Source: a virus (Duplodnaviria; Heunggongvirae; Uroviricota; Caudoviricetes). From it: 13,650 nt of DNA. This document shows positions 1 through 11,955 of this stretch, piece by piece. The stretch covers positions 1 through 13,650 of IMG/VR virus record IMGVR_UViG_3300029490_000278; one strand, 5' to 3'. Position 1 is the first letter of the stretch, and every line of letters begins with the position of its first letter. A program made the position numbers and the translations under genes. The notes beneath the pieces are model-generated. The model did not search any database. It saw nothing but the letters and a program-made list of their open reading frames with translations, and was not told where the DNA came from.

Positions 1-1053
1 TTATTTCCCCACCAGCTCGTTTATCTCTTTCACTGTCTGGTTAAACCGCTCTGACTCAAGCTCAACACCTAAGGCCCGACGCCCCAGCGCCATTGCTGCT
101 TTTATTGTGGAACCGGATCCCATAAAAAAATCAGCAACCAGATCACCAGGTCGACTACTGGCATTGATTATTTGCCTGAGCATATCCGCCGGTTTCTCAC
201 ACGGATGTTTACCCGGGTAGAACTGAACGGGTTTATGCATCCAGACATCGGTATAAGGCACGGAGACTGATACGGAGAAATAGCGCCGGAGAGATTTAAA
301 CTCATCCAGCAATTCAGAATATTTGCGATTCAGTGAATCATAAGACGCCGCCAGCTGGTGGTGTGGTTGTTCCAGTTGTTGTTCCTGAAACTTCTCTGCC
401 GCTATACGGGAAAACAGTGCCTGTAACTTCCGATAGTCAGCCTCATTCGGCAACTGCCACTGACTGGCACCAAACCAGTGGGAAACCATATTTTTCTTAC
501 CTGTGGCTTCGGCAATTTGTTTTGCCGTTATACCCAGTTCGGCACGAGCATCCCTGAAATACGATATCAGCGGTGCCATTATGTGCTGTTTGAGTTCCCT
601 TTCTTTTGCTGCATAGCCGTCACTTTTGCCGCGATATGGCCCCTGGTAATGTTCAGCAAACAGAACGCGCTCTGTGGCAGGAAAATATGCGCGCAGACTT
701 TCTTTATTACACCCATTCCAACGTCCGGACGGCTTCGCCCAGATGATATGGTTAAGCACGTTGAAACGTTCACGCATCATGATCTCAATATCAGATGCCA
801 GGCGATGCCCACAGAACAGGTAAAGGCTTCCGGCAGGTTTTAACACCCGCCAGAACTGGGCCAGACAGTGGTCCAGCCACTTAAGGTAATCTTCGTCCCC
901 TTTCCACTGATTGTCCCAGCCGTTGGGTTTCACCTTGAAGTACGGCGGATCGGTAACAATCAGGTCAATGGAATCATCAGGCAGGGACTGAATAAAATGC
1001 AGGCAATCAGCGTTGATTAAATCAACACTGTTTATTTTTACAGTATTTTTCAT
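1..1053 (-). CDS. DNA methyltransferase, amino-MTase type (N6-adenine or N4-cytosine), beta-class motif order
   Basis: 350-aa ORF. Motif IV DPPY near the N-terminus (LIVTDPPYF) and motif I FxGxG near the C-terminus (DFFMGSGST). ATG at 1051-1053; stop TAA is complement of bases 1-3, so the gene is complete within the window. No clear SD. Confidence 0.85.
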   Translation of the reverse strand: MKNTVKINSVDLINADCLHFIQSLPDDSIDLIVTDPPYFKVKPNGWDNQWKGDEDYLKWLDHCLAQFWRVLKPAGSLYLFCGHRLASDIEIMMRERFNVLNHIIWAKPSGRWNGCNKESLRAYFPATERVLFAEHYQGPYRGKSDGYAAKERELKQHIMAPLISYFRDARAELGITAKQIAEATGKKNMVSHWFGASQWQLPNEADYRKLQALFSRIAAEKFQEQQLEQPHHQLAASYDSLNRKYSELLDEFKSLRRYFSVSVSVPYTDVWMHKPVQFYPGKHPCEKPADMLRQIINASSRPGDLVADFFMGSGSTIKAAMALGRRALGVELESERFNQTVKEINELVGK

Positions 1054-1203
1054 GGATCAGTAAGCGTAACTCTGGTAGGCTCACTCTGCTTTTGCGCTAA
1101 AGCAGTGGGCCGTGGTTCGCTTGTGACCAGTAAGCATGAGCGAATGGCTGGCAGGTGCTACCAACACCCACCAGCCGCCCATTTTCACAGCAGGAAACCG
1201 CCA

Positions 1204-1407
1204 TTACTGGCAGCGTCTGAATTTATTCCCGTACCCGCCGTTATCCTTCGCCAGACCCGCCAGAACTAACTGAGTCAGTATTAACTGGCACCGGGCTTCG
1301 CTTACTCCGGTAGTTCTCGTCATCATGCGTGGCGTTACCCACTTGTCAGCAGGTAAGAAATGAAGGACTGCGGCGGCGGTTTCTGTCATATCTTGCTGTT
1401 TTAGCAT
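1204..1407 (-). CDS. Small helical protein (67 aa), possible winged-helix DNA-binding regulator
   Basis: SD AAGGGA about 8 nt upstream of the ATG at 1407; the in-frame upstream ATG at 1431 has no SD. Sequence resembles small phage regulators, but no diagnostic motif. Confidence 0.45.
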   Translation of the reverse strand: MLKQQDMTETAAAVLHFLPADKWVTPRMMTRTTGVSEARCQLILTQLVLAGLAKDNGGYGNKFRRCQ

Positions 1408-1452
1408 GTCTTTTTCCCTTCTGGTTAACATGACATACCAATAACTCTTGTC

Positions 1453-1479
1453 TAAAAAGCCAGCAAGATAAAAAGCCAG
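1453..1479. repeat. Two 11-bp direct repeats TAAAAAGCCAG (1453-1463 and 1469-1479)
   Basis: Exact repeat read directly from the sequence, 16-bp periodicity, lying between the candidate terminator at 1529-1551 and the start of the small - strand gene. Role unknown. Confidence 0.6.
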
Positions 1480-1528
1480 TATTCACGACCACCAGCGTGT
1501 TTACTGTACTGCACCAGGTTTACAGGTA

Positions 1529-1551
1529 CAAAAAAACCGCTCAGCGGCGGG
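1529..1551 (-). terminator. Candidate intrinsic terminator on the - strand (short GC stem plus 7-U tract)
   Basis: + strand reads caAAAAAAACCGCTCAGCGGCGGG. On the - strand this is a short CCGC/GCGG stem followed by UUUUUUU (1530-1536). The stem is short, so this is weak. Confidence 0.3.
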
Positions 1552-1599
1552 TTTAAGTTGTGTGGCGAAGTAACCACTCTTAACATAATACAATACTTT

Positions 1600-1653
1600 T
1601 TGCGTACGCGTTAATAATTCTATATTATACAAGAAAAACAAGCTGGAAGACAA
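1600..1653. promoter_or_regulatory. AT-rich intergenic region with candidate divergent sigma70 promoters
   Basis: + strand: TTGCGT (1600-1605), 17-nt spacer, TATTAT (1623-1628), upstream of the OLD-like gene. - strand: TTGTCT (complement of 1648-1653), 18-nt spacer, TATAAT (complement of 1624-1629). Pattern match only. Confidence 0.25.
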
Positions 1654-1658
1654 TTAAA

Positions 1659-3437
1659 GTGAGTGAAATCATAAAGTTAAAAGGGCTAATGAATACAAAT
1701 GCTATTGAGCCGTTCATTCGCCATATACGGTTTCCGTATTTTAAAAATCTTGAAGAATATAGCACTATACATTTTCACTATCCTATTACTGCATTAGTTG
1801 GTCAAAATGGAACCAATAAAAGCTCAGTATTACGTGCATTATATGGTTCTCCAAATAATTATTCCTTAGGAAATCTTTGGTTTTCAACTGATCTAGACGA
1901 GATTAAAGATGGTGGTCGTTCTAGATTTATTTATGGATACTATGATTCCGCATCTAAAGATGTTGTTGAAGTAATAAAAACAAGGATTGTAGACAAGGAG
2001 GATCCTGATTTATGGGAAACTTCGAGACCTCTAACTAAAGATGGTATGAAAAAAATACCAACAGATATTATTTCGCCAAATCAGCAAAAATCACGCTGGA
2101 AACAGATAGACAAAATTGTCACATATATTGATTTTAGAGCTTCGATCAGTGCATTCGATAAATTCTTTTATCATTCGGACTTTGATCTTTATCCAAAGAA
2201 AAATCACCTGAGAAAAAGAAGCCATCTTCTTAAAGAGATAATAGATAAAGGCCTAACATCATACAAGCCCTTTAAAGGTAAAAAAGAAAGGTTGTATAAG
2301 AATGAATTACTTTCTCAAGAGAAGGTAGAAATCATCAGCGATATACTTGGTAGACCTTACAAAACAATTAGACTTATTGAGCATGCCTTATTTACAAACA
2401 ATAAGGCTTCAACCGTTATTTTAGAGTCTCATAGTCTCAACTACTCCGAGGCTTTTGCAGGAAGTGGGGAGTTTGCAGTAACTATTCTCGTAAATCAAAT
2501 TGTTAACGCGCCAACAGCATCATTAATTCTTTTAGATGAACCCGAAGTCTCACTTCATCCAGCAGCACAGTTTAAATTGATGTCTTTTCTAAATAAGATT
2601 TGCTTAAAAAACAAACATCAAATTGTTATTTCAACACACTCATCATCTATAGTTAGCCAACTACCTAAGGAAGCCATAAAACTTTTTAATCTTAATTCAA
2701 ACTCAGGGAAAGTTAGTATAGTTGAAAACGTTAGCCCTGAGGAAGCTTTCTTTACGCTTGGAGACCGACTATCAAAAAAAACTATCTTTGTAGAAGATAA
2801 ACTGGCTAAAAAATTCGTTGAGAAGGCTTTAAAATCAGGAGGTCCTGCCCTAGCCAATACATTTGATGTTATATATTGCCCAGCTGGTGCAAGCACATTA
2901 TTAGGTAATATGATTGTCTCATTATTTTTATCAAGAGTTGATAATGCGGTATTTTTATTGGATGGTGATCAGAAGACAAGCCATGATTTCATTACATCAG
3001 CCTTAATACCAAGCAGTGAAGATAATTCTTTAAATGAAAAAATAAAAAATATTCTTGGGTGTGAAATTAAAATACCAACTGATGGGCATGGTGGAACTCC
3101 AAATAAACAGCAGAAGATTCAACTTCAGCGTGATTTCATTGATTTTTCATATAATTATGTAGGGTATTTACCTATCATTAATCCAGAAACTTTTTTGATT
3201 GACAATCTTCCGGCTTTTTACTCCGATATGATTAAAGATTTAAACTTATCAAAACTATCACCAAAATCAATAATTGCAGAAATATGTAAAAGAGACATAG
3301 AAAATAACGTTATAACTTCTGATGATATTTTCGCAACACAAATCAGGATACTAACCCGAATACCTGAGAATCATGTCGCATTTTCTGAAACGAGAGAAAT
3401 GCTGAAATTTTTCCTTGAACATGGTAAGATAAGATAA
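1659..3437 (+). CDS. OLD-family nuclease: N-terminal ABC-type ATPase plus C-terminal TOPRIM domain
   Basis: 592-aa ORF. Walker A GQNGTNKS (res 48-55), signature-like AGSGE, Walker B LILLDEPEVSLHP (D293/E294), H-loop STHS, TOPRIM glutamate in TIFVEDK (E379) and DxD in FLLDGDQ (D434/D436). Start is GTG at 1659; an in-frame ATG at 1689 is the alternative. Visibly AT-rich relative to flanks. Confidence 0.8.
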   Translation: MSEIIKLKGLMNTNAIEPFIRHIRFPYFKNLEEYSTIHFHYPITALVGQNGTNKSSVLRALYGSPNNYSLGNLWFSTDLDEIKDGGRSRFIYGYYDSASKDVVEVIKTRIVDKEDPDLWETSRPLTKDGMKKIPTDIISPNQQKSRWKQIDKIVTYIDFRASISAFDKFFYHSDFDLYPKKNHLRKRSHLLKEIIDKGLTSYKPFKGKKERLYKNELLSQEKVEIISDILGRPYKTIRLIEHALFTNNKASTVILESHSLNYSEAFAGSGEFAVTILVNQIVNAPTASLILLDEPEVSLHPAAQFKLMSFLNKICLKNKHQIVISTHSSSIVSQLPKEAIKLFNLNSNSGKVSIVENVSPEEAFFTLGDRLSKKTIFVEDKLAKKFVEKALKSGGPALANTFDVIYCPAGASTLLGNMIVSLFLSRVDNAVFLLDGDQKTSHDFITSALIPSSEDNSLNEKIKNILGCEIKIPTDGHGGTPNKQQKIQLQRDFIDFSYNYVGYLPIINPETFLIDNLPAFYSDMIKDLNLSKLSPKSIIAEICKRDIENNVITSDDIFATQIRILTRIPENHVAFSETREMLKFFLEHGKIR

Positions 3438-3463
3438 ATTTTAGATTATTATAGAGACAGATC

Positions 3464-4498
3464 ATGAAGAAAAAAATCAAAGTTTTTGACTTCTTTTCAG
3501 GATGCGGGGGAACAAGCAAAGGCCTTAAAGAGGCTGGGTGCGAAATTTTCTTCGGTCTCGATTATGATTATGACTCTGGTCAAACCTTTCAGGCAAATAA
3601 TCCTGATGCTATATTTTTTAATGAGGATATACGCTCCGTTAAGTTAAATGATTTATTTCAGCTTGTAAAAAAAGCGAAGCAAGACTCACATGTTTTGTTT
3701 TGTGGTTGTGCTCCATGTCAACCGTTCTCAAGGCAAAATAAAAATAAAAGCAAAGAAGATCCTCGAAGAGGATTATTAAACGAATTTGGTCGTTTTATCG
3801 AGTACTATTGTCCTGATTATGTACTGATAGAAAATGTTCCAGGATTACAAAAAGTTGATATTAACGATGGACCATTGCATGATTTTATAACTCTTCTGAA
3901 AAAGAAAGATTATAATTTAGCTTATGGTGTGATTCCCGCTTTATGGTACGGAGTGCCTCAAACCAGAGAGCGTTTTGTTCTTATGGCCTCACTTCATTCC
4001 CCAATCCATCTACCAGAGCGCACGCATAATGGCGAAGATATCCCATTTGCGACGGTAAGAGATTGGATCGGAAATATACCACCAATTGAGGCAGGTGAAT
4101 CACATCCTACATTACGAGATCATGTTAGTGCAAAACTCTCTGCTTTAAATCTTAAAAGAATTAAAGCAACGCCAGAGGGTAAAGGTCGAGAGTTTTGGCC
4201 TAAAGAGTTGTTACTTGAATGTCATAAAAACCATACAGGTCACAGCGATGTATATGGCCGATTAGCATGGGATAAACCTGCTAGTGGATTAACTACAAGA
4301 TGCATTAGTTACTCTAACGGAAGATTTGGCCATCCTGAGCAACACCGGGCAATTTCTGTTCGCGAGGCTGCACTGCTACAAACATTTCCATTGGATTATA
4401 TATTCATCGGTTCAATGCTTTCTAAAGCTAAACAAATTGGTAATGCAGTCCCACCTAAAATGGCGGAGTCTATAGGGCATGTTTTTATGAATATTTAG
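3464..4498 (+). CDS. DNA (cytosine-5)-methyltransferase, Dcm-type
   Basis: 344-aa ORF with the full C5-MTase motif set: I FDFFSGCGG, IV GCAPCQPFS (catalytic Cys), VI IENVPGL, VIII QTRERF, X QIGNAVPP. Starts 26 nt after the OLD-like stop on the same strand; AT-rich. Confidence 0.9.
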   Translation: MKKKIKVFDFFSGCGGTSKGLKEAGCEIFFGLDYDYDSGQTFQANNPDAIFFNEDIRSVKLNDLFQLVKKAKQDSHVLFCGCAPCQPFSRQNKNKSKEDPRRGLLNEFGRFIEYYCPDYVLIENVPGLQKVDINDGPLHDFITLLKKKDYNLAYGVIPALWYGVPQTRERFVLMASLHSPIHLPERTHNGEDIPFATVRDWIGNIPPIEAGESHPTLRDHVSAKLSALNLKRIKATPEGKGREFWPKELLLECHKNHTGHSDVYGRLAWDKPASGLTTRCISYSNGRFGHPEQHRAISVREAALLQTFPLDYIFIGSMLSKAKQIGNAVPPKMAESIGHVFMNI

Positions 4499-4518
4499 CT
4501 GGAGCGTAAGCTCCAGCT
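4497..4518. terminator. Perfect 9-bp inverted repeat with GTAA loop between convergent genes
   Basis: AGCTGGAGC-GTAA-GCTCCAGCT, read directly. It overlaps the C5-MTase stop (4496-4498) and ends 3 nt before the stop of the - strand Q-like gene (4522). No U-tract on either side. Confidence 0.4.
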
Positions 4519-4521
4519 TAC

Positions 4522-4863
4522 CTATAACATTGACATTACTCCCTCAACAAATCCCAAGGCGGATTGCAAATCCTTCCGGATAGTCCCGTCCGAACATTTC
4601 CGCTTCTTTGCAATTGTGCGGAGTGAAATACCTATAACAAAGTGAACAATGAGCAGCTCAAACTCATCTGGTTTATACTTTCGTAACCGAGCCACACAAC
4701 TGTCTACCATAATACCTTCGTCATCATCACACTGAATCCGGGACTTTTTGCCATGAGGTAAAAGCCCCTTAAAGCCAGCGGCTACCTGTTGCCAATCCAC
4801 ACCACTGTTTTCTGCCGCAGCCCATGCCCCCCAGCGGTCCAAAACTTCATACATATCACGCAT
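4522..4863 (-). CDS. Small Q-like late-gene antiterminator (tentative)
   Basis: 113 aa from the ATG at 4863, with SD GGAGAAA 5-6 nt upstream. Family assignment is from recalled similarity to small Q-type antiterminators and from position after the nin-like genes; no motif is diagnostic. Confidence 0.4.
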   Translation of the reverse strand: MRDMYEVLDRWGAWAAAENSGVDWQQVAAGFKGLLPHGKKSRIQCDDDEGIMVDSCVARLRKYKPDEFELLIVHFVIGISLRTIAKKRKCSDGTIRKDLQSALGFVEGVMSML

Positions 4864-4880
4864 CAACTTTCTCCACAAAA

Positions 4881-5876
4881 TCAGGCCAGCACGCCTATTG
4901 CCAGCGCACGATCGATAAAACGAAATATCAGCTCCAACTGGGAGCCATACTTCTCTTCAAATGCCACGGTATCCGCATGTAGTTCGTCGTGATGCTTTCT
5001 GCACAAAGGCAACACAAAGAGGTCATGCGCTTTTGTACCCATTCCCCCCTGACCGTGGCCTATCAGGTGGTGGGGATCATCAGCAGGCTTTCCACAACAT
5101 GCACACGGCTGTGTCTTAACCCAGCGCGTGTACTTTTCATTAACCCAGCGGCGACGTTTTGGGCGTAACATAAAAGACTCCGGCGACTTCGGATCCACTT
5201 TCAGCGCCAGCACTTTTTTCGCTTTATCCTGGATGATGCTGGTGGCAGGAACCGAAGGCACAAGGTCACTTTCCCGGGTAACAGACGGCACAACAGGCTT
5301 CGGTAATCTAAGTGCCTTACGGGCTGCACTTTCCGGTAAGGCATCCGCCAGGTCATTACGAATCAGCCACCAGCACAGTTCCGGCATTGTCACAACGTGA
5401 CTGTCATCAAAACCGAGATCCCGACGCACAACAGACAACACCCAGCGGGCACAGTTATCCGTTGCCATTGATTCCAGCCGTTCTGTGAACTGATCGCGCA
5501 GCTGGTTATCGCAGTGCCAGCACAGACGGATTGCGCCCGGAGCGTGTCGCATTGTGGTCATGTTCTCGCTGTGCCAGTCGGAATGAGGCCACTGGCAGCC
5601 TTTTTCACGAAGTAACCAGCTTTCAAGACATTCCACGCCACCAGCACGACGGATCACTGCCTCATTGCGGAACACGCCCCGAACGGCAGGATCATCCGCC
5701 AGCGGTTGTGATGCCGCGGGAACGGCACCACTGGCGAAAGATGAATAACGCTCCGGCTCAGGCTCCAGCAGGACACGCCCCTGCATAAATAGGGGCATCA
5801 GCTCTGAACCTGGTCTGAACAATACGATCCCCATACGCGGGGCAATTTCAGGGGTCAGTAGTGCTCTCACGGTCAC
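4881..5876 (-). CDS. Phage nin-region protein with C-terminal Cys/His (HNH-like or zinc-binding) motif, DUF968-like (tentative)
   Basis: 331-aa ORF. C-terminus carries CACCGKPADDPHHLIGHG...LPLCRKHHDELH. The GTG at 5876 overlaps the upstream TGA stop (GTGA), suggesting translational coupling; exact start is ambiguous. Confidence 0.6.
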   Translation of the reverse strand: MTVRALLTPEIAPRMGIVLFRPGSELMPLFMQGRVLLEPEPERYSSFASGAVPAASQPLADDPAVRGVFRNEAVIRRAGGVECLESWLLREKGCQWPHSDWHSENMTTMRHAPGAIRLCWHCDNQLRDQFTERLESMATDNCARWVLSVVRRDLGFDDSHVVTMPELCWWLIRNDLADALPESAARKALRLPKPVVPSVTRESDLVPSVPATSIIQDKAKKVLALKVDPKSPESFMLRPKRRRWVNEKYTRWVKTQPCACCGKPADDPHHLIGHGQGGMGTKAHDLFVLPLCRKHHDELHADTVAFEEKYGSQLELIFRFIDRALAIGVLA

Positions 5877-5877
5877 C

Positions 5878-6687
5878 TCAATGTACGGTATCGAGCAGCT
5901 TTAACAGCTCAGGGAATCGGGATTCGAAGAAATGCGGCTGCGTCTCGCGCGGATTTGCGGGACTGGTGATGTTCTTGCCGAACATGCAGCCTTTCGCTGT
6001 CAGTGACCAGAATTTTTTGATGTTGTTAATCGCGGTACGGCTGTATCGTTCGCGCTGCTCGACGATCCCCAGCTTCACCATCTGGTGATATGCCTGATTA
6101 GCTGTCAGGCGGATACCATACTGCTTCAGCAATGCACTCAGTGACAGCGTGGGGCGGCTTGAGCCATCAGGCGCGTCAGCAGGAGCATCAATGGCATAGC
6201 GCGGTGCCAGATTCGGTAAGCCAACAGCCTCCTGGAGTTTCTGACAGGCACCAAGCACTGAAGAGTTAGACAGGTTTAATTCCCGGCGCATAAAGTCCAG
6301 CAGAATCACACCAGCCTGCATCTTGTCAGCAGCCTGTCCGGATAATTTTTCCGGTGCGCTGGTTACCATGTCGAAAGTACGGATCACCTTCAGATGGAAT
6401 GACGGGCTGATCCACATTGCATAGGCATACACCAGTTCTTTGCAGACATACGTCCCCTGGTTATTTCCGCCATTAATGACGCTAACTGGTTGATTTTGTT
6501 CCAGAGGCGGAATTCCACCCTCGGTGAAAAGTTGTTCAATCAATTCACAGGTTTGCTTATTGGAGAGCCAGTATTTCGGGCGGTTTTTTTGTTCTCCCCC
6601 GGCTGCCCTGTGCAGATCGTTCAGGCTGTAACGCCCATAAGCATCACGACGAACTTCAATACCATCAATGACCATCAGATTATTCAT
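5878..6687 (-). CDS. KilA-N domain protein (antirepressor-like)
   Basis: 269 aa from the ATG at 6687, with SD GAGGAG about 8 nt upstream. N-terminal region (MVIDGIEVRRDAYGRYSLNDLHRAAG...YWLSNKQTCELIEQL...GTYVCKELVYAYAMWISPSFHLKVIRTFD) fits the KilA-N fold pattern. Confidence 0.65.
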   Translation of the reverse strand: MNNLMVIDGIEVRRDAYGRYSLNDLHRAAGGEQKNRPKYWLSNKQTCELIEQLFTEGGIPPLEQNQPVSVINGGNNQGTYVCKELVYAYAMWISPSFHLKVIRTFDMVTSAPEKLSGQAADKMQAGVILLDFMRRELNLSNSSVLGACQKLQEAVGLPNLAPRYAIDAPADAPDGSSRPTLSLSALLKQYGIRLTANQAYHQMVKLGIVEQRERYSRTAINNIKKFWSLTAKGCMFGKNITSPANPRETQPHFFESRFPELLKLLDTVH

Positions 6688-6706
6688 ACTTCGTTTCTCC
6701 TCTTGA

Positions 6707-6952
6707 TCAGGCGGCTGCACCCGCCGGTTTCTCGTACTTACTGATAGTGATCTCGACCTTCCCTTCCGGGATAACCGGTCCCCACTCCACCAACATTCTT
6801 TTCACTTGGCTGTCGTCTTCCCACACACCCGCGTGGGTCAGGGCGTCAAACAGCGCCTTGTTATAGTTGTCCAGATCGCGGATCCGGTTACGGGTCTTCG
6901 CGTTTTTCGGTGTACGTGCTGACGGACGGTGATAAGCGCAGGGAAAGCTCAT
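6707..6952 (-). CDS. rusA: RusA-like Holliday-junction resolvase, conserved C-terminal core with short or atypical N-terminus
   Basis: C-terminal 55 residues (RIRDLDNYNKALFDALTHAGVWEDDSQV...GKVEITISKYEK) match the RusA catalytic region, including the DLDN and DD acidic residues. The ORF can be extended to an ATG at 7066 (119 aa), but that N-terminus overlaps the O-like gene in another frame and lacks the usual RusA N-terminal motif. Confidence 0.5.
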   Translation of the reverse strand: MSFPCAYHRPSARTPKNAKTRNRIRDLDNYNKALFDALTHAGVWEDDSQVKRMLVEWGPVIPEGKVEITISKYEKPAGAAA

Positions 6953-7769
6953 CCCATTTTTCCCGCAACTTCGACGGGCTGAGCACGTTACGGCACCAGA
7001 ACGGATCGCGGCTGACGCGGCTGTACATCTCGCAGATTTGTTTGTGAGTACGACCATCCTGTACACACATCAGGCGAATTTCGTTTGCCCAGGCTGTCCA
7101 GTTCGGTTCTTTGGGACGAACCACCTCGCCGTCACATTCGGCGGCTTGCTCGTACAGGGCGATGATTTTTTTCCAGAGCCACTGTGCGCAGGTCAAATCA
7201 TCCTGCGTTCCCCACTGGCGCTTTTTAGGGCTGAATACAACCGCATCAGGATGGCGAGTTAAAAAATCCTGTTCATCCGTCTGCGTGTCCGGTTGCGAAG
7301 CGTCCGGACGAGAAGGTTTTTTATCTGACGGATCATGTTTTGATTTTACTGACGGATCCCCGCCAGATTCTGACGGGTGAAAACCCGCTTTTTTGCCAGA
7401 TTTCGACGCATCAAATTTTGACGGGTCAGATTTTGATGCGTCAGATTTTGACGGGTCAGAATCTGACAGTTGAGAAAATGCCGCTGCCTGAAGCTTCGCA
7501 ACGTTAAGCTGATAAACATTCGACGCATTGCGGTTACCCTGGCGACGCGCCTTACGCGTTAACCAGCCTTCTGCTTCCAGCCGTGCGATAGCCGTTCTGA
7601 CGGTACTCATCCCCGCGCCAATCTGGCGGGCAATGGTTTCAATTGATGGCCAGCACACACCTTCGTCATTACTGAAATCAGCCAAGCGGGCCATAATTGC
7701 CACGCTGGATAATTTCATGCCTGACGCTGCGCAACCATCCCATACATAGCCGGTTAATTTAGTGCTCAT
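6888..7769 (-). CDS. Replication initiator, O-like (N-terminal winged-helix DNA-binding domain, repetitive acidic/Ser-rich linker)
   Basis: 293-aa ORF, ATG at 7769 with SD AGAGGT 6 nt upstream. N-terminal HTH-like region (SVAIMARLADFSNDEGVCWPSIETIARQIGAGMSTVRTAIARLEAEGWL). Linker (SDSDPSKSDASKSDPSKFDASKSG) is encoded by tandem 15-bp repeats. Sits in the O position of a lambdoid early-right operon. Confidence 0.6.
   Translation of the reverse strand: MSTKLTGYVWDGCAASGMKLSSVAIMARLADFSNDEGVCWPSIETIARQIGAGMSTVRTAIARLEAEGWLTRKARRQGNRNASNVYQLNVAKLQAAAFSQLSDSDPSKSDASKSDPSKFDASKSGKKAGFHPSESGGDPSVKSKHDPSDKKPSRPDASQPDTQTDEQDFLTRHPDAVVFSPKKRQWGTQDDLTCAQWLWKKIIALYEQAAECDGEVVRPKEPNWTAWANEIRLMCVQDGRTHKQICEMYSRVSRDPFWCRNVLSPSKLREKWDELSLRLSPSVSTYTEKREDP
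7399..7458. repeat. Four tandem 15-bp iteron-like repeats (consensus GATTTTGACGGGTCA) inside the O-like gene; candidate origin
   Basis: Units at 7399-7413, 7414-7428, 7429-7443 and 7444-7458, with degenerate copies at 7321-7335, 7366-7380 and 7459-7469. Each unit has internal dyad symmetry (TGAC..GTCA). Confidence 0.6.
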
Positions 7770-7778
7770 GACCGACCT

Positions 7779-8117
7779 CTATTTCCCTGAATTTACGACG
7801 AAACTGTTCGAGCGGGCTGAAGCACTCATGCTCATAGCCTTCACGGAGGTAGATAACCCGTTGTGTTTCCGGCTCCCAACGAATGACTCTGACGGGCACT
7901 CCGTAGTGATCTTTGAACCAGCGGTTAACTTGTCGCAAAGGACTGCCTCCTTCTGCCGGTTGAAATCCCCCACAGCCCACTCTGCAAAGCTGTGGGTTAC
8001 AATTTCCCTGTCACCTGGTACATTCACTGCATAGCAATACTCCACCTTCGCTTTTCCACCCGGTACAGGAAGCGCAATCAGTTGCGAGCGACGGTAGTGT
8101 GTTGTTAAACTGTTCAT
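7779..8117 (-). CDS. Hypothetical early protein (112 aa), possibly frameshifted
   Basis: ATG at 8117 overlaps the upstream stop (ATGA). A -1-frame ORF (7759-7980) continues from a C5/G5 homopolymer at 7967-7971 and would end just before the O-like start. Confidence 0.45.
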
Positions 8118-8677
8118 GCGTTAGTTTCTCCACAGTCACGACACGCCACGGCGCCCGGAGCTGCACACTCGCGGGCGTCATTACTTTCTGAAATGCAAAA
8201 AATTTTGTAGACCAGTGCTGCATGCTCCTGCAGCTTCGAAATTGAGAGGTACAACTCGTCGTTAATTGCTGTCTTCTCATGCGGTTCCACTACACCGTCT
8301 TCAATTGCTGAACGAATCTGTTTTGAATAACTGCCGATCTGTTCAATGACCTCCAGCAGGCGTTGGTTGATATCGGCGTTGTCCACATCCTCGACGTCAG
8401 GAAGAGACACAAAGACGCCATTTGCAGACTGCGCCACAGCATCAGCAATGAAGTGAGTGCCACCAGCACGCTGTAAAACCATTGCCCATCCCAGCGGGAA
8501 AATCTGATCGCCATCTGCACGAAGGCGGTTGAATAAAGCGTTTTCTGTTACATCGAGCCAGTCAGCCGCTTCAGCGTAACCACCCGGCAACGCCGCGATA
8601 GTTTTTCTGACAGCTTTCACGTACCACTCAGGCTGTTTTTCTATTTTCCAGTGATGCTTACCCACGATTAGCCTCAT
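8114..8677 (-). CDS. Early regulatory protein in the cII position (function tentative)
   Basis: 187-aa ORF directly downstream of the cro-like gene, ATG at 8677. Assignment is by synteny with lambdoid early-right operons; no diagnostic motif. Confidence 0.5.
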
Positions 8678-8708
8678 CGTTCTGTGGTTAAAAATTGAAA
8701 GTGTTCTG

Positions 8709-8909
8709 CTAATCTTTCGGATAGATATCCGGTCTTAAGTCAGATTTCGTAATTGCACCTGACGTGCATTGCTCAAGTTTTTTAGCCAGCACAAAACTGG
8801 CTTTTTTATAGCCATTGAAAACCAGCCGTAAGTAGCCAGGTGTTGAGCCAACTTTTCCGGCCAACTCGCCCTGCTGTTCTTTGGTTAAAGAGTCCCAATA
8901 CGCTTTCAT
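8709..8909 (-). CDS. Cro-like small HTH repressor
   Basis: 66 aa from the ATG at 8909, with SD GGAGGT 9 nt upstream. HTH-like sequence (LTKEQQGELAGKVGSTPGYLRLVFNG), divergent from the CI-like gene. The longer listed ORF (to 9212) runs antisense through the repressor gene and is rejected. Confidence 0.7.
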   Translation of the reverse strand: MKAYWDSLTKEQQGELAGKVGSTPGYLRLVFNGYKKASFVLAKKLEQCTSGAITKSDLRPDIYPKD

Positions 8910-8915
8910 ACAATA

Positions 8916-8982
8916 TGTACCTCCGGTGTACATATTACATGATTGAAATGAACCTTCAAGATACTTGTACCTTAACGGTACA
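8916..8982. promoter_or_regulatory. Immunity switch region: divergent promoters plus two TGTAC-N7-GTACA operator palindromes
   Basis: Operators at 8916-8932 (TGTAC ctccggt GTACA) and 8966-8982 (TGTAC cttaacg GTACA). - strand promoter: TTGAAG (complement of 8954-8959), 16-nt spacer, TAATAT (complement of 8932-8937). + strand candidate: TTGTAC (8965-8970), 17-nt spacer, TTTAAT (8988-8993). Confidence 0.55.
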
Positions 8983-8999
8983 AGGGTTTTAATTTCGTT

Positions 9000-9674
9000 A
9001 TGAAAACAATCCATGACATCCGGCGGTCTAACGCCAGAAAACTGAGAGATGGTGTTGGCGGGAATTCTTCCTTTGCCACTATGATTGATCGCGAGCCAAC
9101 CCAGACCAGCAGGTTTATGGGAGATGGTGCTACTAAAAATATCGGTGACAGCATGGCACGACACATCGAAAAATGTTTCGACCTGCCTGTCGGATGGCTC
9201 GATCAAGAACACCAGACAACGAACATCACAAAAAAACCTGATGTTTCAATCACTAATAAACAAATCACATTAGTCCCTGTCATATCATGGGTACAGGCCG
9301 GAGCATGGAAAGAAGTTGGATATTCTGAGGTTGATTTGAGCACAGCAGAAACGTATCCCTGCCCTGTACCCTGTGGGGAAATGACTTATATCTTGCGGGT
9401 GATAGGTGATTCAATGATTGATGAGTACCGCCCGGGAGACATGATTTTTGTCGATCCTGAAGTACCTGCCTGCCACGGTGACGACGTTATTGCATTGATG
9501 CACGATACAGGTGAAACCACCTTCAAAAGGTTGATAGAAGATGGGACACAGCGTTATCTCAAAGCGTTAAACCCAAACTGGCCTGAGCCTTACATTAAGA
9601 TCAACGGTAATTGCTCTATAATTGGTACAGTGATTTTCTCAGGAAAACCAAGAAGATACAAAATCAAAGCCTAA
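9000..9674 (+). CDS. CI-like phage repressor with LexA-type S24 peptidase domain
   Basis: 224-aa ORF with an N-terminal XRE-type HTH and a C-terminal S24 domain (Ser in VIGDSM, Lys in TFKRL). No SD before the ATG at 9000. Confidence 0.85.
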   Translation: MKTIHDIRRSNARKLRDGVGGNSSFATMIDREPTQTSRFMGDGATKNIGDSMARHIEKCFDLPVGWLDQEHQTTNITKKPDVSITNKQITLVPVISWVQAGAWKEVGYSEVDLSTAETYPCPVPCGEMTYILRVIGDSMIDEYRPGDMIFVDPEVPACHGDDVIALMHDTGETTFKRLIEDGTQRYLKALNPNWPEPYIKINGNCSIIGTVIFSGKPRRYKIKA

Positions 9675-9686
9675 TCAATGTTTATG

Positions 9687-9709
9687 AACCTGCTTCGGCA
9701 GGTTTTTTT
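9687..9709 (+). terminator. Rho-independent terminator downstream of the repressor gene
   Basis: 7-bp stem AACCTGC/GCAGGTT with a UUCG tetraloop, followed by a 7-T run (9703-9709), 13 nt after the repressor stop. Confidence 0.8.
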
Positions 9710-9713
9710 ATAC

Positions 9714-9758
9714 TTGACAATGTACCTTTGAGATACATAATGTACCCAAGCGAAACAA
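9714..9758 (+). promoter_or_regulatory. pL-like promoter with embedded operator
   Basis: -35 TTGACA (9714-9719), 16-nt spacer, -10 CATAAT (9736-9741). Operator-like TGTAC-N7-aTACA at 9721-9737 sits between the -35 and -10; a weaker copy (TGTAC at 9742-9746) follows. Confidence 0.55.
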
Positions 9759-9908
9759 CGAACAGGCAGGACGCCCACGAAGTAGCCGCCTGGGGCATAT
9801 GAAGTCCAGGATGATTCGTTAGCAACAAAAAAGCGCCCTACAGGACGCTTAGCTCTTTAACAATCTGGTCCCCATCAACAAGTAACTGATAACTTGAGGA
9901 GATGTGAA

Positions 9909-10115
9909 ATGCACAAAACAGAACCCAAAATCGTCGCGCCTGGCTACACAGATGAGGAAATTTATGAGTGGATGACAAAGAAGCTGGCAGCTATAAACCA
10001 GCTTCGTGAAGTGCTGTCTTATCGACAGGAAACAATAGACTCCTTAAAAAAACTGGATCAGGAAATCACGGTTTTATCACAGGATGTTACTTTAGATATT
10101 GTGCAGACAAATTAG
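9909..10115 (+). CDS. Small hypothetical early protein (68 aa, predicted helical)
   Basis: ATG at 9909 with SD GAGGAG 7 nt upstream; first gene after the pL-like promoter. No recognisable domain. Confidence 0.4.
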   Translation: MHKTEPKIVAPGYTDEEIYEWMTKKLAAINQLREVLSYRQETIDSLKKLDQEITVLSQDVTLDIVQTN

Positions 10116-10521
10116 GATCCCATTCATTTTCGTCAAAATCATCAAAATGATGAATTTGTGATCTCCAGTCTCGATAATCTAAAAATTTCTGGGCGGTTAC
10201 GCTTATTTTATCAAGTGTGAGTTCATCCTGAATTGAAAGAAGAAGTTCATCAAATTTCATCTCATTAATCTGTTTTGGCATCCAGTGATGCTTCATCAGA
10301 ATAAGGTGAACCAGAGCCTTTTTCCCATTCAACTGATTATAGGGAGTGCCGAATTTCTTCCGGTGCTCATGTAAGACAAGGTCCAAAAGAGTAAGTAATG
10401 TTGCCCTTGATTCAACTTTGCTTATTTCGACTGATGACACTACCCCACTGATTTCAATGCCCCGATACTTTCCAACATTTTCACAGTGGGATTTGTACAG
10501 CGTATAGATATTACCGGACAT
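10087..10521 (-). CDS. AT-rich hypothetical protein (144 aa) on the opposite strand of the early-left operon; candidate moron
   Basis: ATG at 10521 with SD AAGGAA about 6 nt upstream. Visibly lower GC than its neighbours. 3' end overlaps the convergent 9909-10115 gene by 29 nt. No motif recognised. Confidence 0.5.
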   Translation of the reverse strand: MSGNIYTLYKSHCENVGKYRGIEISGVVSSVEISKVESRATLLTLLDLVLHEHRKKFGTPYNQLNGKKALVHLILMKHHWMPKQINEMKFDELLLSIQDELTLDKISVTAQKFLDYRDWRSQIHHFDDFDENEWDPNLSAQYLK

Positions 10522-10807
10522 TTCTTTTCCTTTTGCGTTGTTGGGGATAACCAGATTAACCGAATCCTTGTTGTTGGGGAATAACTAGGTCCACCTCGCC
10601 TGATGTGGCTAAAAGCAGGCACATAACAGCTAAGTATTTTCAACCAGAGAGAATCCTTAGCGTTGTGGTGAATGCGGCTCAGCGCACGCGGGTTAAGGTT
10701 GAGGCTGACAGTCGACCTTCTGTGGATACCCACCCGCCTGGTGTGCAACCTTCGCCAGGCACCGGGAGGCACCCGGCACCACAACTTTATGCTGTGTGTA
10801 GTCTTGG

Positions 10808-10852
10808 CGGTACCAGCTTGTACCCTTGCTTCCGGCTGGTACCGTCCTTTTT
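10808..10852 (+). terminator. Candidate intrinsic terminator or structured RNA 3' end
   Basis: Perfect 10-bp stem CGGTACCAGC (10808-10817) / GCTGGTACCG (10835-10844) with a 17-nt loop, followed by TCC then TTTTT (10848-10852). Confidence 0.4.
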
Positions 10853-10941
10853 ACAAAACAGAGAAGAGCATCACCGGACGACGGGCTCATAACCCAATCC
10901 ATCCGGGCGGCTGCCACCGCAGGTGTTCTTCTCTGTTTTGT
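10853..10941. repeat. Perfect 15-bp inverted repeat enclosing a 59-nt GC-rich segment
   Basis: ACAAAACAGAGAAGA (10853-10867) and its exact reverse complement TCTTCTCTGTTTTGT (10927-10941). An 11-bp direct repeat ATCACCGGACG also occurs at 10870-10880 and 10996-11006. Confidence 0.6.
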
Positions 10942-11065
10942 GGAGAAACTAACCGCCCCTACGGGGGCATTTATGGAAATGTAATTGACTCAATAATCAC
11001 CGGACGGTGAGGGCTTCCTTTTACCGGAATTCAGCGCGGTGCAGCGCATATACGTGGAGAACAAA

Positions 11066-11602
11066 ATGTCATTTATTAAAACTTTTTCCGGGAAGCATTT
11101 TTATTATGACAGGATAAATAAAGACGACATCGTTATTAACGATATCGCGGTTTCCCTTTCAAATATCTGTCGCTTTGCAGGACATCTTTCACACTTCTAC
11201 AGTGTCGCCCAACATGCGGTGCTTTGCAGCCAGCTGGTGCCGCAGGAATTTGCTTTTGAAGCTTTAATGCATGATGCAACAGAAGCATATTGCCAGGACA
11301 TCCCCGCACCACTGAAACGACTTCTTCCTGACTATAAACGGATGGAAGAAAAAATAGACGCCGTAATCCGTGAGAAATACGGGTTACCTCCTGTTATGAG
11401 CACGCCAGTGAAATATGCCGATCTCATTATGCTGGCAACCGAACGCCGCGATCTCGGGCTTGATGATGGCTCTTTCTGGCCTGTGCTGGAAGGTATCCCG
11501 GCAACAGAGATGTTCAACGTGATTCCACTGGCTCCAGGCCATGCCTACGGGATGTTTATGGAACGCTTTAACGAATTATCGGAGTTACGCAAATGCGCAT
11601 GA
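11066..11602 (+). CDS. HD-domain phosphohydrolase (5'-deoxynucleotidase-like)
   Basis: 178 aa from the ATG at 11066, with SD GGAGA 5 nt upstream. HD-superfamily motifs: H in FYSVAQHAV, HD in ALMHDATEAY, D in DLIMLATERRD. Stop overlaps the next start (ATGCGCATGA). Confidence 0.8.
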   Translation: MSFIKTFSGKHFYYDRINKDDIVINDIAVSLSNICRFAGHLSHFYSVAQHAVLCSQLVPQEFAFEALMHDATEAYCQDIPAPLKRLLPDYKRMEEKIDAVIREKYGLPPVMSTPVKYADLIMLATERRDLGLDDGSFWPVLEGIPATEMFNVIPLAPGHAYGMFMERFNELSELRKCA

Positions 11603-11955
11603 ATGTTTTCGAAATGGAAGGGTTTCTTCGTGGGAGATGTGTACCGCGAGATCTGAAAGTGAATGAAACGGATGCTGAATACCTGGTGCGTAAATTCGAT
11701 GCGCTTGAAGCTAAATGTGCAGCACAGGAAAACAAAGTAATACCAGTGTCAACTGAACTGCCACCAGCAAATGAAAGTGTTTTGTTATTCGATGCTAACG
11801 GAGAAGGCTGGCTAATTGGCTGGCGTTCTCTCTGGTACACCTGGGGACAAAAAGAAACCGGAGAATGGCAGTGGACATTTCAGGTCGGGGACCTTGAAAA
11901 CGTCAATATCACTCACTGGGCAGTAATGCCAAAAGCACCGGAGGCTGGAGCATAA
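11593..11955 (+). CDS. DUF551-like phage protein (tentative)
   Basis: 120-aa ORF translationally coupled on both sides (shares TAATG with the next gene). Domain call is from recalled sequence pattern only. Confidence 0.5.
   Translation: MRMNVFEMEGFLRGRCVPRDLKVNETDAEYLVRKFDALEAKCAAQENKVIPVSTELPPANESVLLFDANGEGWLIGWRSLWYTWGQKETGEWQWTFQVGDLENVNITHWAVMPKAPEAGA

Follow-up and report, generated by a model that had tools for sequence, protein, structure and literature searches.

A prophage cargo cassette that pairs an OLD-family ATPase/TOPRIM nuclease with a C5-cytosine methyltransferase: a candidate restriction-modification-like exclusion system

We analysed a 13,650-nt stretch of phage DNA (positions 1 to 13,650 of IMG/VR record IMGVR_UViG_3300029490_000278; hereafter the window), which contains a 2.9-kb cassette at positions 1614-4522. 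The element that hosts the cassette is a lambdoid prophage of E. coli, and the slot that it occupies lies between Q and the late promoter. Two genes, encoding an OLD-family nuclease and a C5-cytosine DNA methyltransferase (MTase), are on the + strand and thus inverted relative to the surrounding phage genes on the - strand. These include Q (4522-4878, - strand) on one side and, on the other, a 75-aa ORF (1204-1431, - strand) and an N6/N4 MTase gene (1-1053, - strand), which is the second MTase of this prophage. The GC content across the cassette is low (0.35, compared with 0.49 in the flanks): the nuclease gene has a value of 0.33 and the MTase gene one of 0.39, against 0.49 and 0.48 in the two flanks.

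The cassette is exchangeable cargo and behaves as such. In the near-identical EP91B prophage, blastn homology of 98.4% spanned window positions 1-1613 and restarted at position 4523, and two unrelated + strand ORFs occupied the slot in place of the cassette. The slot in mEp460 likewise holds alternative genes, while the Q-lysis slot in other E. coli, Hafnia and related prophages holds a 60%-identical version of the nuclease/MTase pair. The pair is rare in E. coli, where it was found in 18 of 5426 complete genomes, with both genes present every time. No close homolog was found among 72,556 plasmids or 50,697 phage records. On the plasmids, tblastn at E <= 1e-5 gave no match above 28% identity, and no IbfA-annotated gene was among the matches. 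Such an absence from plasmid and phage records is unusual for a restriction-modification (R-M)-like module.

Upstream of the nuclease gene is a cassette-specific leader (1614-1658, + strand), in which a promoter is presumed. A sequence scan found two features on the opposite strand: a late-promoter-like site inside the leader (TTGTCT-18-TATAAT, 10/12; 1653-1624, - strand) and a terminator-like hairpin followed by a T-run adjoining it (1548-1536, - strand). Since promoter-like counts were no higher than in shuffled sequences, we treat the promoter-like site as a lead only. In strain EC4, IS903B is located upstream of the nuclease gene, between this gene and a 204-nt hypothetical gene, and the nuclease and MTase genes are both intact despite the insertion. 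The two genes are separated by a 26-nt spacer (3438-3463, + strand) and are presumed to be co-transcribed. At the far end of the cassette the MTase gene and Q converge, and a hairpin with a 9-bp stem, AGCTGGAGC-GTAA-GCTCCAGCT (4497-4518), fills the interval between their stop codons (4496-4498 and 4522-4524, respectively). This hairpin was read from the sequence and is part of the cassette. Without a T-run it is not a canonical terminator, and its function is putative. The alternative cargo of EP91B also closes with a hairpin adjoining the Q stop codon.

The nuclease gene (1659-3437, + strand) has a GTG start and encodes 592 aa, or possibly 582 aa from an alternative start at M11, which is the length of the cluster representative P0001. 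RefSeq labels the same CDS 'ATP-dependent nuclease'. Pfam, motifs, conservation among 58 sequences and the secondary structure of the model delimit an ABC-type ATPase half (aa 1-360; 1659-2738, + strand). As in the broad OLD family, Walker A (GQNGTNKS, aa 48-55, including K54), Walker B (LLDEPE, aa 291-296, including D293 and E294) and the H-loop (H327) all lie in this N-terminal half, together with a signature-like AGSGE (aa 267-271). Inserts in the ATPase half hold family-specific residues that are invariant (W74, F75, D80, E120, M130, R146, D167 and H242, 58/58) or nearly so (T77, 57/58; W119, 56/58). The rest of the protein comprises a TOPRIM core (aa ~372-440) and a helical C-terminal region (together 2772-3434, + strand), recognised by conserved columns, PADLOC profiles and Foldseek. 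Conserved residues of the core (E379, D380, G410 and D435-G436-D437) include the Glu and DxD of the broad OLD family; there was no Pfam TOPRIM match in the nuclease, even when the C-terminal half was searched separately, so the TOPRIM call rests on the E/DxD residues, the PADLOC profiles and the AlphaFold model. In the helical region K536 is invariant and E510 is kept in 57/58. The Walker A and B residues, H327, E379, D435, D437 and K536 are identical in all 58 nucleases, which come from many phyla.

Pfam matched the ATPase part of the nuclease alone (AAA_21, 4e-17; AAA_15, 3e-15). The best PADLOC profile was HEC-04 (2.9e-34), and the ATPase-Toprim profile of retron I-B also matched (1.6e-27), both extending into the TOPRIM region, while no restriction-enzyme profile was among the 25 best PADLOC matches. 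The AlphaFold model (pLDDT 84.5) shows an OLD-like fold. Its best Foldseek matches in the PDB were the full-length OLD nucleases TsOLD (6p74, 5e-13) and GajA, with GajA and Eco8 structures among the top fold matches. The predicted ABC ATPase head also resembles SMC/Rad50 heads.

The MTase gene (3464-4498, + strand) encodes 344 aa. Motifs I (FSGCGG, 11-16), IV (PCQ, 84-86), VI (ENV, 123-125), VIII (QxRxR; QTRER, 166-170) and X (GNxVP; GNAVP, 326-330) are all present, so the enzyme is predicted to be catalytically complete. It matched PF00145 in Pfam (6e-55), TIGR00675 (dcm, 4.9e-40) and PADLOC MTase_II (6.8e-86), as well as the DrmMII and DruM profiles, and an 82%-identical Klebsiella homolog is automatically named 'Modification methylase HgiDII'. 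P84, C85, E123, N124, V125, Q166, R168, R170 and G326 are invariant in 58/58 partner MTases, with Q86 and N327 each kept in 57/58. Judging by these residues, both enzymes look active across the 58 pairs. An earlier sequence-only reading of this DNA had already described a 592-aa ATPase/TOPRIM protein followed by a complete C5-MTase on the same strand after 26 nt; these features and its ORF positions were borne out, as were the AT-richness of the genes (33-39% GC, against 49% in the flanks) and their inversion relative to the phage genes. Among the catalytic residues that it named, K54 and E379 were correct, but D434 and D436 were each off by one and are in fact D435 and D437.

We determined how consistently the two genes are linked in 66 loci with nuclease homologs (34-60% identity) from species-representative genomes. 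A C5-MTase was present in 62 of these loci, which span more than 15 bacterial phyla. In 61 of them a C5-MTase ORF lay within 5.5 kb, and one further locus (L009) was found to have an intact MTase by tblastn; the remaining four are cut by contig ends. The MTase is mostly the immediate same-strand neighbour of the nuclease homolog, in either gene order and often with gaps or overlaps of 1-4 nt; the two genes of these relatives are 1-3 nt apart or overlap by 4 nt or more. Conversely, none of 14 control loci (L070-L083), which carry more distant or unrelated ABC ATPases, contained a C5-MTase. When the search was reversed, all four C5-MTases with 59-69% identity to that of the window (from Burkholderia, Hafnia, Herbaspirillum and Stutzerimonas) had the nuclease immediately upstream; in two of these loci (L090 and L091) no mobile-element or nuclease genes were annotated among the immediate neighbours. 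Pairwise identities of the nucleases and MTases were also correlated (Mantel r = 0.40, p = 0.001). The linkage is near-obligate across phyla, and the nuclease and MTase are very probably one functional pair and not chance neighbours, in agreement with the pairing proposed from the sequence. A lack of co-occurrence elsewhere, which that reading had named as a refutation, is decisively contradicted. Searches of the literature and of profiles found neither a published description of the pair nor an existing system name.

The two genes also differ in their decay. The nuclease is degraded next to an intact MTase in four loci (L028, L062, L065 and L068) and both genes are degraded in two, while no intact nuclease without an MTase could be verified among the homolog loci. 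One-sided decay is the pattern expected with the MTase as antidote, although the 4:0 asymmetry alone is not significant, as the two genes differ 1.7-fold in length, the nuclease gene being the longer.

Most loci (roughly three quarters, including the window) contain the MTase and nuclease only. Elsewhere the pair also sits in defence islands, and in about a quarter of the loci it is accompanied by a restriction gene of a conventional type or by DISARM genes. Eight loci have a complete HpaII-type R-M system (MTase and PF09561 endonuclease), to which the nuclease is an extra third gene that is sometimes translationally overlapped. A GHKL protein of the R.HgiDII type was found in five loci, a GHKL/histidine-kinase and receiver pair in four, and DISARM genes abut the pair in two, where DrmA/DrmB or DrmD flank L019 and L014. 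Vsr accompanies the nuclease in 14 loci, and small HTH genes of the R-M-controller kind accompany the pair in five. Where an R.HpaII-family or GHKL gene lies beside the pair, the OLD nuclease is an additional component. In the loci with these extra genes it is not the sole, and perhaps not the primary, restriction component.

Partners can be exchanged within the clade. Nucleases that are 66-68% identical (L051 compared with L050 and L054) pair with MTases that are only ~25% identical, and no discrete hypervariable specificity segment in the nuclease separated such swapped pairs from controls. The loci L058 and L059 differ in another way: their ATPase halves are 80-97% identical and their MTases 94% identical, compared with 17-53% for the TOPRIM halves. 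The TOPRIM half changes at a much higher rate than either the ATPase half or the MTase.

We compared the cassette with each class of OLD nuclease. Class 1 OLDs, defined in a review as single genes without a conserved partner, were rejected considering the C5-MTase partner in 62 of 66 homolog loci. This linkage effectively excludes an orphan MTase lying next to a class 1 OLD, the alternative that the sequence-only reading had kept. The class 1 enzyme TsOLD is the best match to the nuclease among solved structures, also by sequence (1e-10), and the class 1 gene P2 old is likewise prophage-borne. However, sequence similarity to class 1 OLDs is limited to the ATPase motifs, and low global TM-scores (0.32-0.36) indicate that the domain arrangement or the inserts differ. 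Gabija (class 2) was rejected since no UvrD-like gene is adjacent, the neighbours being the MTase and phage genes; GajA profiles matched only ~74 aa of the ATPase core, and weakly. PARIS (class 4) was rejected as well, because both domains are fused in one polypeptide, a separate AriB is lacking and DUF4435 gave no match; AriA profiles matched the ATPase only (2.4e-17 and 9.6e-16). Both systems had been set aside on the same grounds from the sequence, and the profile check proposed at that stage gave OLD-type matches, with HEC-04 best and GajA and AriA weak and confined to the ATPase core. A type I-B retron (class 3) was rejected too, as the annotation of the identical RefSeq locus shows no flanking reverse transcriptase; the ATPase-Toprim_I-B match reflects effector relatedness only. 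The MTase linkage thus shows that the nuclease is not a class 1 OLD, Gabija, PARIS or retron effector. Gabija, PARIS and retron Eco8 have OLD-type ABC ATPase and TOPRIM chemistry in common with the cassette, and in each the nuclease is controlled by a partner. This partner is a UvrD-like helicase, AriB or a reverse transcriptase with msDNA in those systems, in contrast to the C5-MTase of the cassette.

The closest characterised relatives are HEC-04 and IbfA. Protection of E. coli by HEC-04 depends on Walker A and on the E/D/D residues of its TOPRIM domain. HEC-04 is toxic if induced and was discovered embedded in the methylase-containing Hma system; IbfA interferes with phages. Although HEC-04 and the cassette nuclease have a two-domain design in common, the HEC-04 profile covers only aa 208-445 of the 592 in the latter. 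It is a better fit, over almost its whole length, for three MTase-less relatives (L070-L072; ~550 aa, 28-30% identical; 4e-45). Neither HEC-04 nor IbfA needs an MTase of its own to protect, whereas the cassette clade has one. The nuclease is part of a methylase-coupled clade that is probably sister to the stand-alone HEC-04/IbfA defence proteins.

Among R-M systems, the cassette can be compared with Type II systems such as HpaII and HgiDII, which also have adjacent genes for a nuclease and a complete C5-MTase. Mobility and low GC are further features that the module has in common with these systems. Conversely, the TOPRIM/ATPase fold is absent from the Type II enzyme folds catalogued in a 2008 survey, and the conservation of the ATPase speaks against a classical Type II enzyme, which would not depend on ATP. 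Type I and III systems do not fit either, as the predicted motor is an ABC ATPase and neither protein has a helicase domain. The DISARM and Druantia genes DrmA, DrmB, DrmC and DruE are absent from the window.

Taking these results together, we suggest that the cassette encodes an ATP-dependent R-M-like exclusion system that spares self by means of methylation or of the MTase, a reading to which we assign a probability of roughly 0.45. The MTase would mark resident DNA with 5-methylcytosine, and so protect it, or would neutralise the nuclease in some other way. ATP binding or hydrolysis would let the nuclease engage incoming unmarked DNA as its substrate, which the two-metal TOPRIM site would then cut. 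Both proteins would be produced from one transcript, and the function of the system would be anti-phage. Since related nucleases use unrelated C5-MTases, target recognition is likelier to come from the MTase or the methylation state than from a domain of the nuclease that reads sequence. This arrangement would by analogy resemble a Type III system. MTase-supplied recognition, or a guard or abortive-infection role, fits at least as well as a classical restriction enzyme that reads its own sequence. More tentatively, the clade may constitute a fifth, methyltransferase-coupled class of OLD, and a new kind of ATP-dependent R-M system, in which an ABC-ATPase/TOPRIM motor-nuclease would rely on the C5-MTase for recognising targets and marking self. 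Such a class would follow Type III logic with entirely different parts, either as a two-gene unit or as a second nuclease bolted on to HpaII-type, GHKL-type or DISARM systems.

The nuclease might instead be a latent toxic DNase or tRNase that is silenced by the C5-MTase or its R-M complex and freed when a phage disables or bypasses it, upon which the cell or its translation is shut down. We regard such a guard or abortive module, similar to PrrC/EcoprrI or PARIS, as possible but the less probable explanation. PrrC is an ABC-ATPase-type nuclease in the EcoprrI Type I R-M locus that is silenced until a phage interferes. Its nuclease domain differs, and the Type I system with which it is partnered brings a restriction subunit, whereas most cassette-type loci have no other restriction component. 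The extra restriction genes and swappable MTases keep a guard model alive: the nuclease has been added to complete restriction systems (HpaII, R.HgiDII-like GHKL and DISARM) in about a quarter of the loci, and an unrelated C5-MTase can take the place of its partner while the nuclease itself changes little. Relatives point in the same direction, as HEC-04 and IbfA are single-gene, toxic defence proteins, other OLD-family members are triggered abortive effectors (some of them tRNases), PARIS and P2 Old have been described as tRNases that a trigger activates, and OLD-ABC/TOPRIM modules inside BREX loci are described as 'backup suicidal effectors'. The fast diversification of the TOPRIM half (L058 compared with L059) is typical of arms-race surfaces, and the constant MTase and one-sided decay suit an antitoxin-like partner equally well. 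However, about three quarters of the loci, including the window, have no restriction component to guard, and two of these loci lie among ordinary genes of the chromosome; it is not obvious what selective value there would be in guarding an MTase on its own. A purely structural silencer would not need perfect MTase catalytic motifs, and we know of no C5-MTase inhibitor that might act as the trigger.

The association is specific to C5-MTases regardless of their sequence family or restriction enzyme, as is the case for Vsr. This could also reflect a Vsr-like accessory for damage control, in which the ABC/TOPRIM enzyme processes lesions made by the C5-MTase, either T:G mismatches from 5mC deamination or trapped MTase-DNA adducts in the manner of SbcCD/Mre11-Rad50. 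As such lesions are specific to C5-MTases, the enzyme would accompany the MTase irrespective of the other genes nearby. The similarity of the ABC head to SMC/Rad50 heads agrees with this, as does the decay of the nuclease while the MTase persists, the reverse of which was never seen. Yet the presence of Vsr in 14 loci means that the mismatch role is already filled there, and the vast majority of C5-MTases do without such a partner. Considering further that every OLD-family relative characterised so far acts in defence or exclusion, that the cassette occupies a prophage cargo slot and its relatives defence islands, and that rapid diversification of the nuclease half is unexpected for a repair enzyme, we find damage control improbable. 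Least probable by far are two independent cargo genes, with a class 1 OLD exclusion gene placed by chance beside an orphan anti-restriction phage MTase. Class 1 OLDs, HEC-04 and IbfA do act alone, and orphan MTases are common in phages, with a second one in this prophage (1-1053). Independence is contradicted by the linkage to C5-MTases in 62/66 homolog loci as opposed to 0/14 control loci, by the nuclease adjoining 4/4 close MTase homologs, by overlapping reading frames in many loci and by the correlated gene trees.

OLD nucleases are now sorted by their partner (none, helicase, retron or AriA), and gating by the partner is the central open question. A C5-MTase as constant partner is a type absent from the OLD classification in the review, and it offers an easy experimental handle because experimenters can choose the methylation state freely. 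Should the R-M-like reading be true, the TOPRIM/ABC enzyme would be added to the few architectures of restriction nucleases and could possibly provide a new ATP-dependent, methylation-sensitive laboratory nuclease. Should the nuclease be a guard, immunity based on C5-MTases would have its first example of a specifically linked back-up effector. In E. coli genomics, the cassette shows that lambdoid prophages have a cargo slot of the defence type between Q and their late promoter, which in other strains is filled by alternative, wholly uncharacterised gene pairs.

The two genes lie on the plus strand, where a 592-aa OLD-family ATPase/TOPRIM protein (hereafter the nuclease, 1659-3437) is followed after 26 nt by a 344-aa C5-cytosine methyltransferase (the MTase, 3464-4498). 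The GC content is 0.33 in the nuclease gene, 0.39 in the MTase gene and 0.49 in the flanks. The nuclease is an intact enzyme with ABC-type ATPase motifs (Walker A K54, a signature-like AGSGE at 267-271, Walker B D293/E294, and H327) and the TOPRIM acidic residues E379 and D435/D437. Pfam matched only its ATPase part (AAA_21 and AAA_15), and a Pfam scan restricted to the C-terminal half gave no match. PADLOC profiles of fused ATPase-TOPRIM proteins did match the nuclease, namely HEC-04 (2.9e-34) and the retron type I-B effector (1.6e-27). An AlphaFold model with 16 homologs as input (mean pLDDT 84.5) had as its top solved-structure match the full-length OLD nuclease of Thermus scotoductus (6p74, E = 5e-13), followed by GajA, Retron-Eco7 PtuA (9kjx) and the retron Eco8 effector (9lp9). 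TM-scores of the model against OLD structures were low, about 0.3, as expected for differing domain orientations. The second protein matches PF00145 at 6e-55 with motifs I, IV (PCQ, 84-86), VI (ENV), VIII (QxRxR) and X (GNAVP) all in place and is, judged from its sequence, a complete and intact C5-cytosine methyltransferase. The ATPase motifs, TOPRIM residues, OLD-like matches and complete MTase confirm the two genes described in the sequence-only reading, which had also placed E379 correctly but had put the paired aspartates one residue too early, at D434/D436.

We determined how widely the two genes are linked by comparing loci across bacteria. Among the 120 best protein-search matches, full-length nuclease homologs occurred down to 43% identity, in Enterobacterales, Pseudomonas, Microbulbifer, Tolumonas and others. 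An exhaustive profile search (E <= 1e-30, clustered at 50% identity) yielded 554 cluster representatives. The best 150 of these were nearly all 580-650 aa long, with few truncated entries, and included no MTase-nuclease fusion proteins, which we had sought as a sign of physical interaction. A scan of one genome per species gave 66 loci with true homologs (L004-L069, 34-44% identity to the nuclease). These belong to Pseudomonadota, Bacillota, Actinomycetota, Bacteroidota, Nitrospirota, Patescibacteria, Planctomycetota, Verrucomicrobiota, Myxococcota, Desulfobacterota, Melainabacteria and others. Fourteen loci from the same scan that contain only distant or unrelated ABC ATPases (L070-L083) served as controls. 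A C5-MTase ORF lay at most 5.5 kb away in 61 of the 66 homolog loci, usually as the immediate same-strand neighbor, in either order and often with a gap of 1-3 nt or an overlap of 4 nt. A 62nd locus (L009) has an intact MTase that was not called as an ORF, and contig ends cut the remaining four short. The 14 control loci contained no C5-MTase. Conversely, four of five C5-MTases 58-69% identical to that of the window had a locus on record (59-69% identity, from Burkholderia, Hafnia, Herbaspirillum and Stutzerimonas), and the nuclease was immediately upstream in all four. In two of these, no mobile-element or nuclease genes were annotated among the immediate neighbors.

The catalytic residues of both proteins are conserved along with the linkage. 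Across 58 pairs, K54, D293/E294, H327, E379, D435/D437 and K536 of the nuclease were invariant, as were P84-C85, ENV, Q166/R168/R170 and G326 of the MTase, while Q86 and N327 were found in 57 of 58. Pairwise identities of nucleases and MTases were correlated (Mantel r = 0.40, p = 0.001). The nuclease and MTase are one module, inherited as a unit, and their pairing is far beyond chance. The neighborhood check thus shows that the pair recurs (62/66 homolog loci) and is not confined to the window. A class 1 OLD protein beside an orphan MTase, the alternative raised from the sequence alone, is effectively excluded by the presence of the MTase at 62/66 homolog and 0/14 control loci and of the nuclease at 4/4 reverse-test loci. 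No members of the clade (at least 34% identity) were found in 72,556 plasmid records or in 50,697 phage records.

We next looked at the other genes at the homolog loci, whose neighbors were clustered and then scanned against Pfam and PADLOC. In roughly three quarters of the loci, the window among them, the pair stands alone. Vsr was found in 14 loci, and in eight an HpaII-family restriction endonuclease (PF09561) separates an HpaII-like MTase from the nuclease. A GHKL-ATPase protein matching REBASE-derived Type II profiles and small R-M-controller-type HTH genes were each found in five loci. DISARM genes adjoin the pair in L019 (DrmA/DrmB, 3-7785) and in L014 (DrmD with a Type III-like N6 MTase, 3246-12724). 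In L014, the MTase and the nuclease are also separated by an R.HgiDII-like GHKL gene. An MTase homolog automatically named M.HgiDII had suggested that the nuclease is R.HgiDII. This was ruled out, as R.HgiDII is described with a GHKL N-terminal domain, and the R.HgiDII-type GHKL protein is a separate gene beside the pair in five loci.

Four Bacteroidota loci (L028, L031, L038 and L042, about 300-7800 in each) contain a GHKL/histidine-kinase protein of about 1000 aa. In L031, this protein has two GHKL ATPase domains and a HEF_HK domain. The genes there form an array of four: the C5-MTase, the ~1000-aa protein, a ~550-aa receiver-domain protein (PF19192) and the OLD-type nuclease. Only L028 and L031 are confirmed to have this receiver-domain protein, and neither of the two additional proteins matched a PADLOC profile at E <= 1e-10. 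These arrays look like a two-component-like signaling layer on the module.

Comparisons between closely related loci revealed how the two halves of the module change. Between L051 and L050/L054, the nucleases are 66-68% identical whereas the MTases are only about 25% identical, and R.HpaII is present in one locus and absent from the other. MTase partners are exchangeable in this way. A sliding comparison gave no clear signal of a discrete nuclease segment diverging specifically with the MTase swap. In two Gastranaerophilales MAGs (L058 and L059, 6001-8929), the MTase is 94% and the ATPase half 80-97% identical, while the TOPRIM and C-terminal half of the nuclease is only 17-53% identical. This divergence suggests that the nuclease half either has been replaced by recombination or evolves very fast. 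As for decay, the nuclease is truncated or frameshifted beside an intact MTase in four loci (L028, L062, L065 and L068), and both genes are degraded in L067 and L073. No verifiable case of an intact nuclease with a lost MTase was found among the loci checked for decay. This direction is what an antidote relationship predicts, although the 4:0 asymmetry does not reach significance, given that the nuclease gene exceeds the MTase gene 1.7-fold in length. An apparent nuclease loss in metagenome locus L092 was a gene-calling artefact, since the ORF is intact and the only base that differs from locus L091 lies outside the gene.

The window belongs to a lambdoid E. coli prophage, which is a mosaic, since the full 13.65 kb has no end-to-end match in any one record. 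Positions 1400-4700 are identical to the chromosome of E. coli PM4 and near-identical (99.7-100%) to nine further complete genomes. The pair sits between the minus-strand genes for the late-gene antiterminator Q (4522-4878, PF06530) and a 75-aa ORF (1204-1431). DUF968, KilA-N and RusA genes, and then replication genes, are also on the minus strand. From the placement of a CI/LexA-like repressor (9000-9674, plus strand, Peptidase_S24) and a tyrosine integrase that runs past the window end (12487-13650, plus strand), the window reaches from the start of the late operon to the attachment-site end of the prophage. The integrase adjoins a tRNA-Thr gene in the related EP91B prophage. The first part of the late operon, directly after the presumed late promoter, holds an N6/N4-type DNA methyltransferase (1-1053, minus strand, PF01555, 1.4e-42), which related prophages keep whether or not they have the cassette. 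The prophage therefore has two methyltransferases of different chemistry. Immediately beyond the start of the nuclease gene, the minus strand has a promoter-like site (1653-1624) and, after it, a hairpin with a T-run (1548-1536). These are positioned as a Q-dependent late promoter and its first terminator would be, but are only a lead, because promoter-scan counts in the window were no higher than in shuffles. The same counts give no support for an internal MTase promoter. In E. coli EC4, IS903B (L084 1699-2667) is inserted between the nuclease gene and a 204-nt hypothetical gene, just upstream of the position corresponding to window 1659. Both cassette genes are intact despite this insertion, which could affect how the nuclease or the late operon is expressed.

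As far as position 1613, the EP91B prophage (L093) is a 98% match to the window, and homology restarts at 4523, with 93.5% across Q and the adjacent genes and 96-99% beyond. Between these points, EP91B has two plus-strand genes unrelated to the pair, encoding proteins of 308 aa (L093 1872-2798) and 182 aa (L093 2785-3333) with no Pfam or PADLOC match. The homology break and these unrelated genes delimit the exchangeable unit as window 1614-4522. Phage mEp460_4F5 carries the same 308-aa gene in that slot (L085 3273-4199). The cassette ends in a hairpin with a 9-bp stem (4497-4518) between the convergent MTase and Q stop codons. The EP91B cargo is likewise inverted and ends in a hairpin beside the Q stop codon. 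A 60%-identical pair occupies the same Q-to-lysis slot of other E. coli prophages (L002 and L003), and a comparably diverged pair that of Hafnia-type prophages. Among 5426 complete E. coli genomes, ten have the window's version and eight the 60%-identical version, with both genes intact in all carriers. The pair is mobile cargo, and the slot between Q and the late promoter behaves like a cargo or defense hotspot, with the 308-aa and 182-aa genes as uncharacterised candidates. In Burkholderia cenocepacia, the pair (L086 2165-7106) is at the edge of an integrated element, beside a tyrosine integrase, DUF4224 and a replication-initiation gene. The latter matches REP_ORF2-G2P, and the element is possibly a filamentous prophage. 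As a mobile carrier, it differs in kind from the lambdoid prophage.

Beyond the intact enzymes, their joint inheritance and their mobility, we infer what the pair does. We rank an ATP-dependent R-M-like system first, with a probability of about 0.45, because most loci have no nuclease other than the OLD protein beside a catalytically perfect MTase, because some loci have controller-type HTH genes and because the direction of decay fits an antidote. Targets would then be recognized via the MTase or its methyl mark and not via a sequence-reading domain of the nuclease, which we consider likelier because the nuclease changes little when its partner is swapped. The main rival is a PrrC/PARIS-like guard in which a latent toxic nuclease would be silenced by the MTase or by an R-M complex built on it, and it would explain those loci where R.HpaII, an R.HgiDII-like gene or DISARM genes are already present. 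Several characterised OLD relatives are trigger-activated and some are tRNases, which fits such a guard. However, this gives no reason for guarding a lone MTase. We regard the guard as less likely than the R-M-like system.

The exclusive link to C5 enzymes would be accounted for if the nuclease acted, like Vsr, in controlling damage from lesions specific to C5-MTases. Yet Vsr itself already co-occurs in 14 loci, the relatives of the nuclease are defense genes and the nuclease half diversifies rapidly, so that this role is improbable. Chance adjacency of the nuclease and MTase is the least credible of all and deserves almost no weight. The central idea of the sequence-only reading, an exclusion unit of linked nuclease and MTase distinct from both Gabija and PARIS, is supported, but not its exact mode of action.

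We found no description of the module in full-text searches on OLD/TOPRIM with cytosine methyltransferase or restriction, although such pairs may already have been mentioned elsewhere, for instance in REBASE or in the classification of ABC ATPases by Krishnan et al. 2020 (NAR). A 2024 paper, citing Krishnan et al. 2020, describes cytosine methylases coupled to a different ABC clade (CxC/Dnd-like). Two other candidates were ruled out: the OLD-family gene of the PluTI paper belongs to a Gabija pair beside an unrelated R-M system, and in a Xanthomonas Tn-seq paper the OLD gene and the essential MTase are at different loci.

The classes of OLD proteins are defined by partner. Class 1 genes occur singly, Gabija with its UvrD-like helicase makes up class 2, class 3 members are linked to retrons, and PARIS forms class 4. 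The nuclease lacks the defining contextual feature of each, and the OLD classification literature covered here does not mention a methyltransferase-linked class. HEC-04, its nearest profile, is itself a single-gene ABC ATPase-TOPRIM defense protein that was discovered embedded in the methylase-containing Hma system. HEC-04 needs the Walker A lysine and TOPRIM E/D/D residues and is toxic upon induction, and IbfA of IncI plasmids has been reported as a homolog. The HEC-04 match on the nuclease is confined to residues 208-445, whereas the MTase-less distant relatives L070-L072 fit this profile better and almost end to end (4e-45). This suggests that the nuclease is part of a sister clade in which an MTase has become an obligate partner. 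We assign the module to the OLD-family nucleases, as a clade coupled to a methyltransferase.
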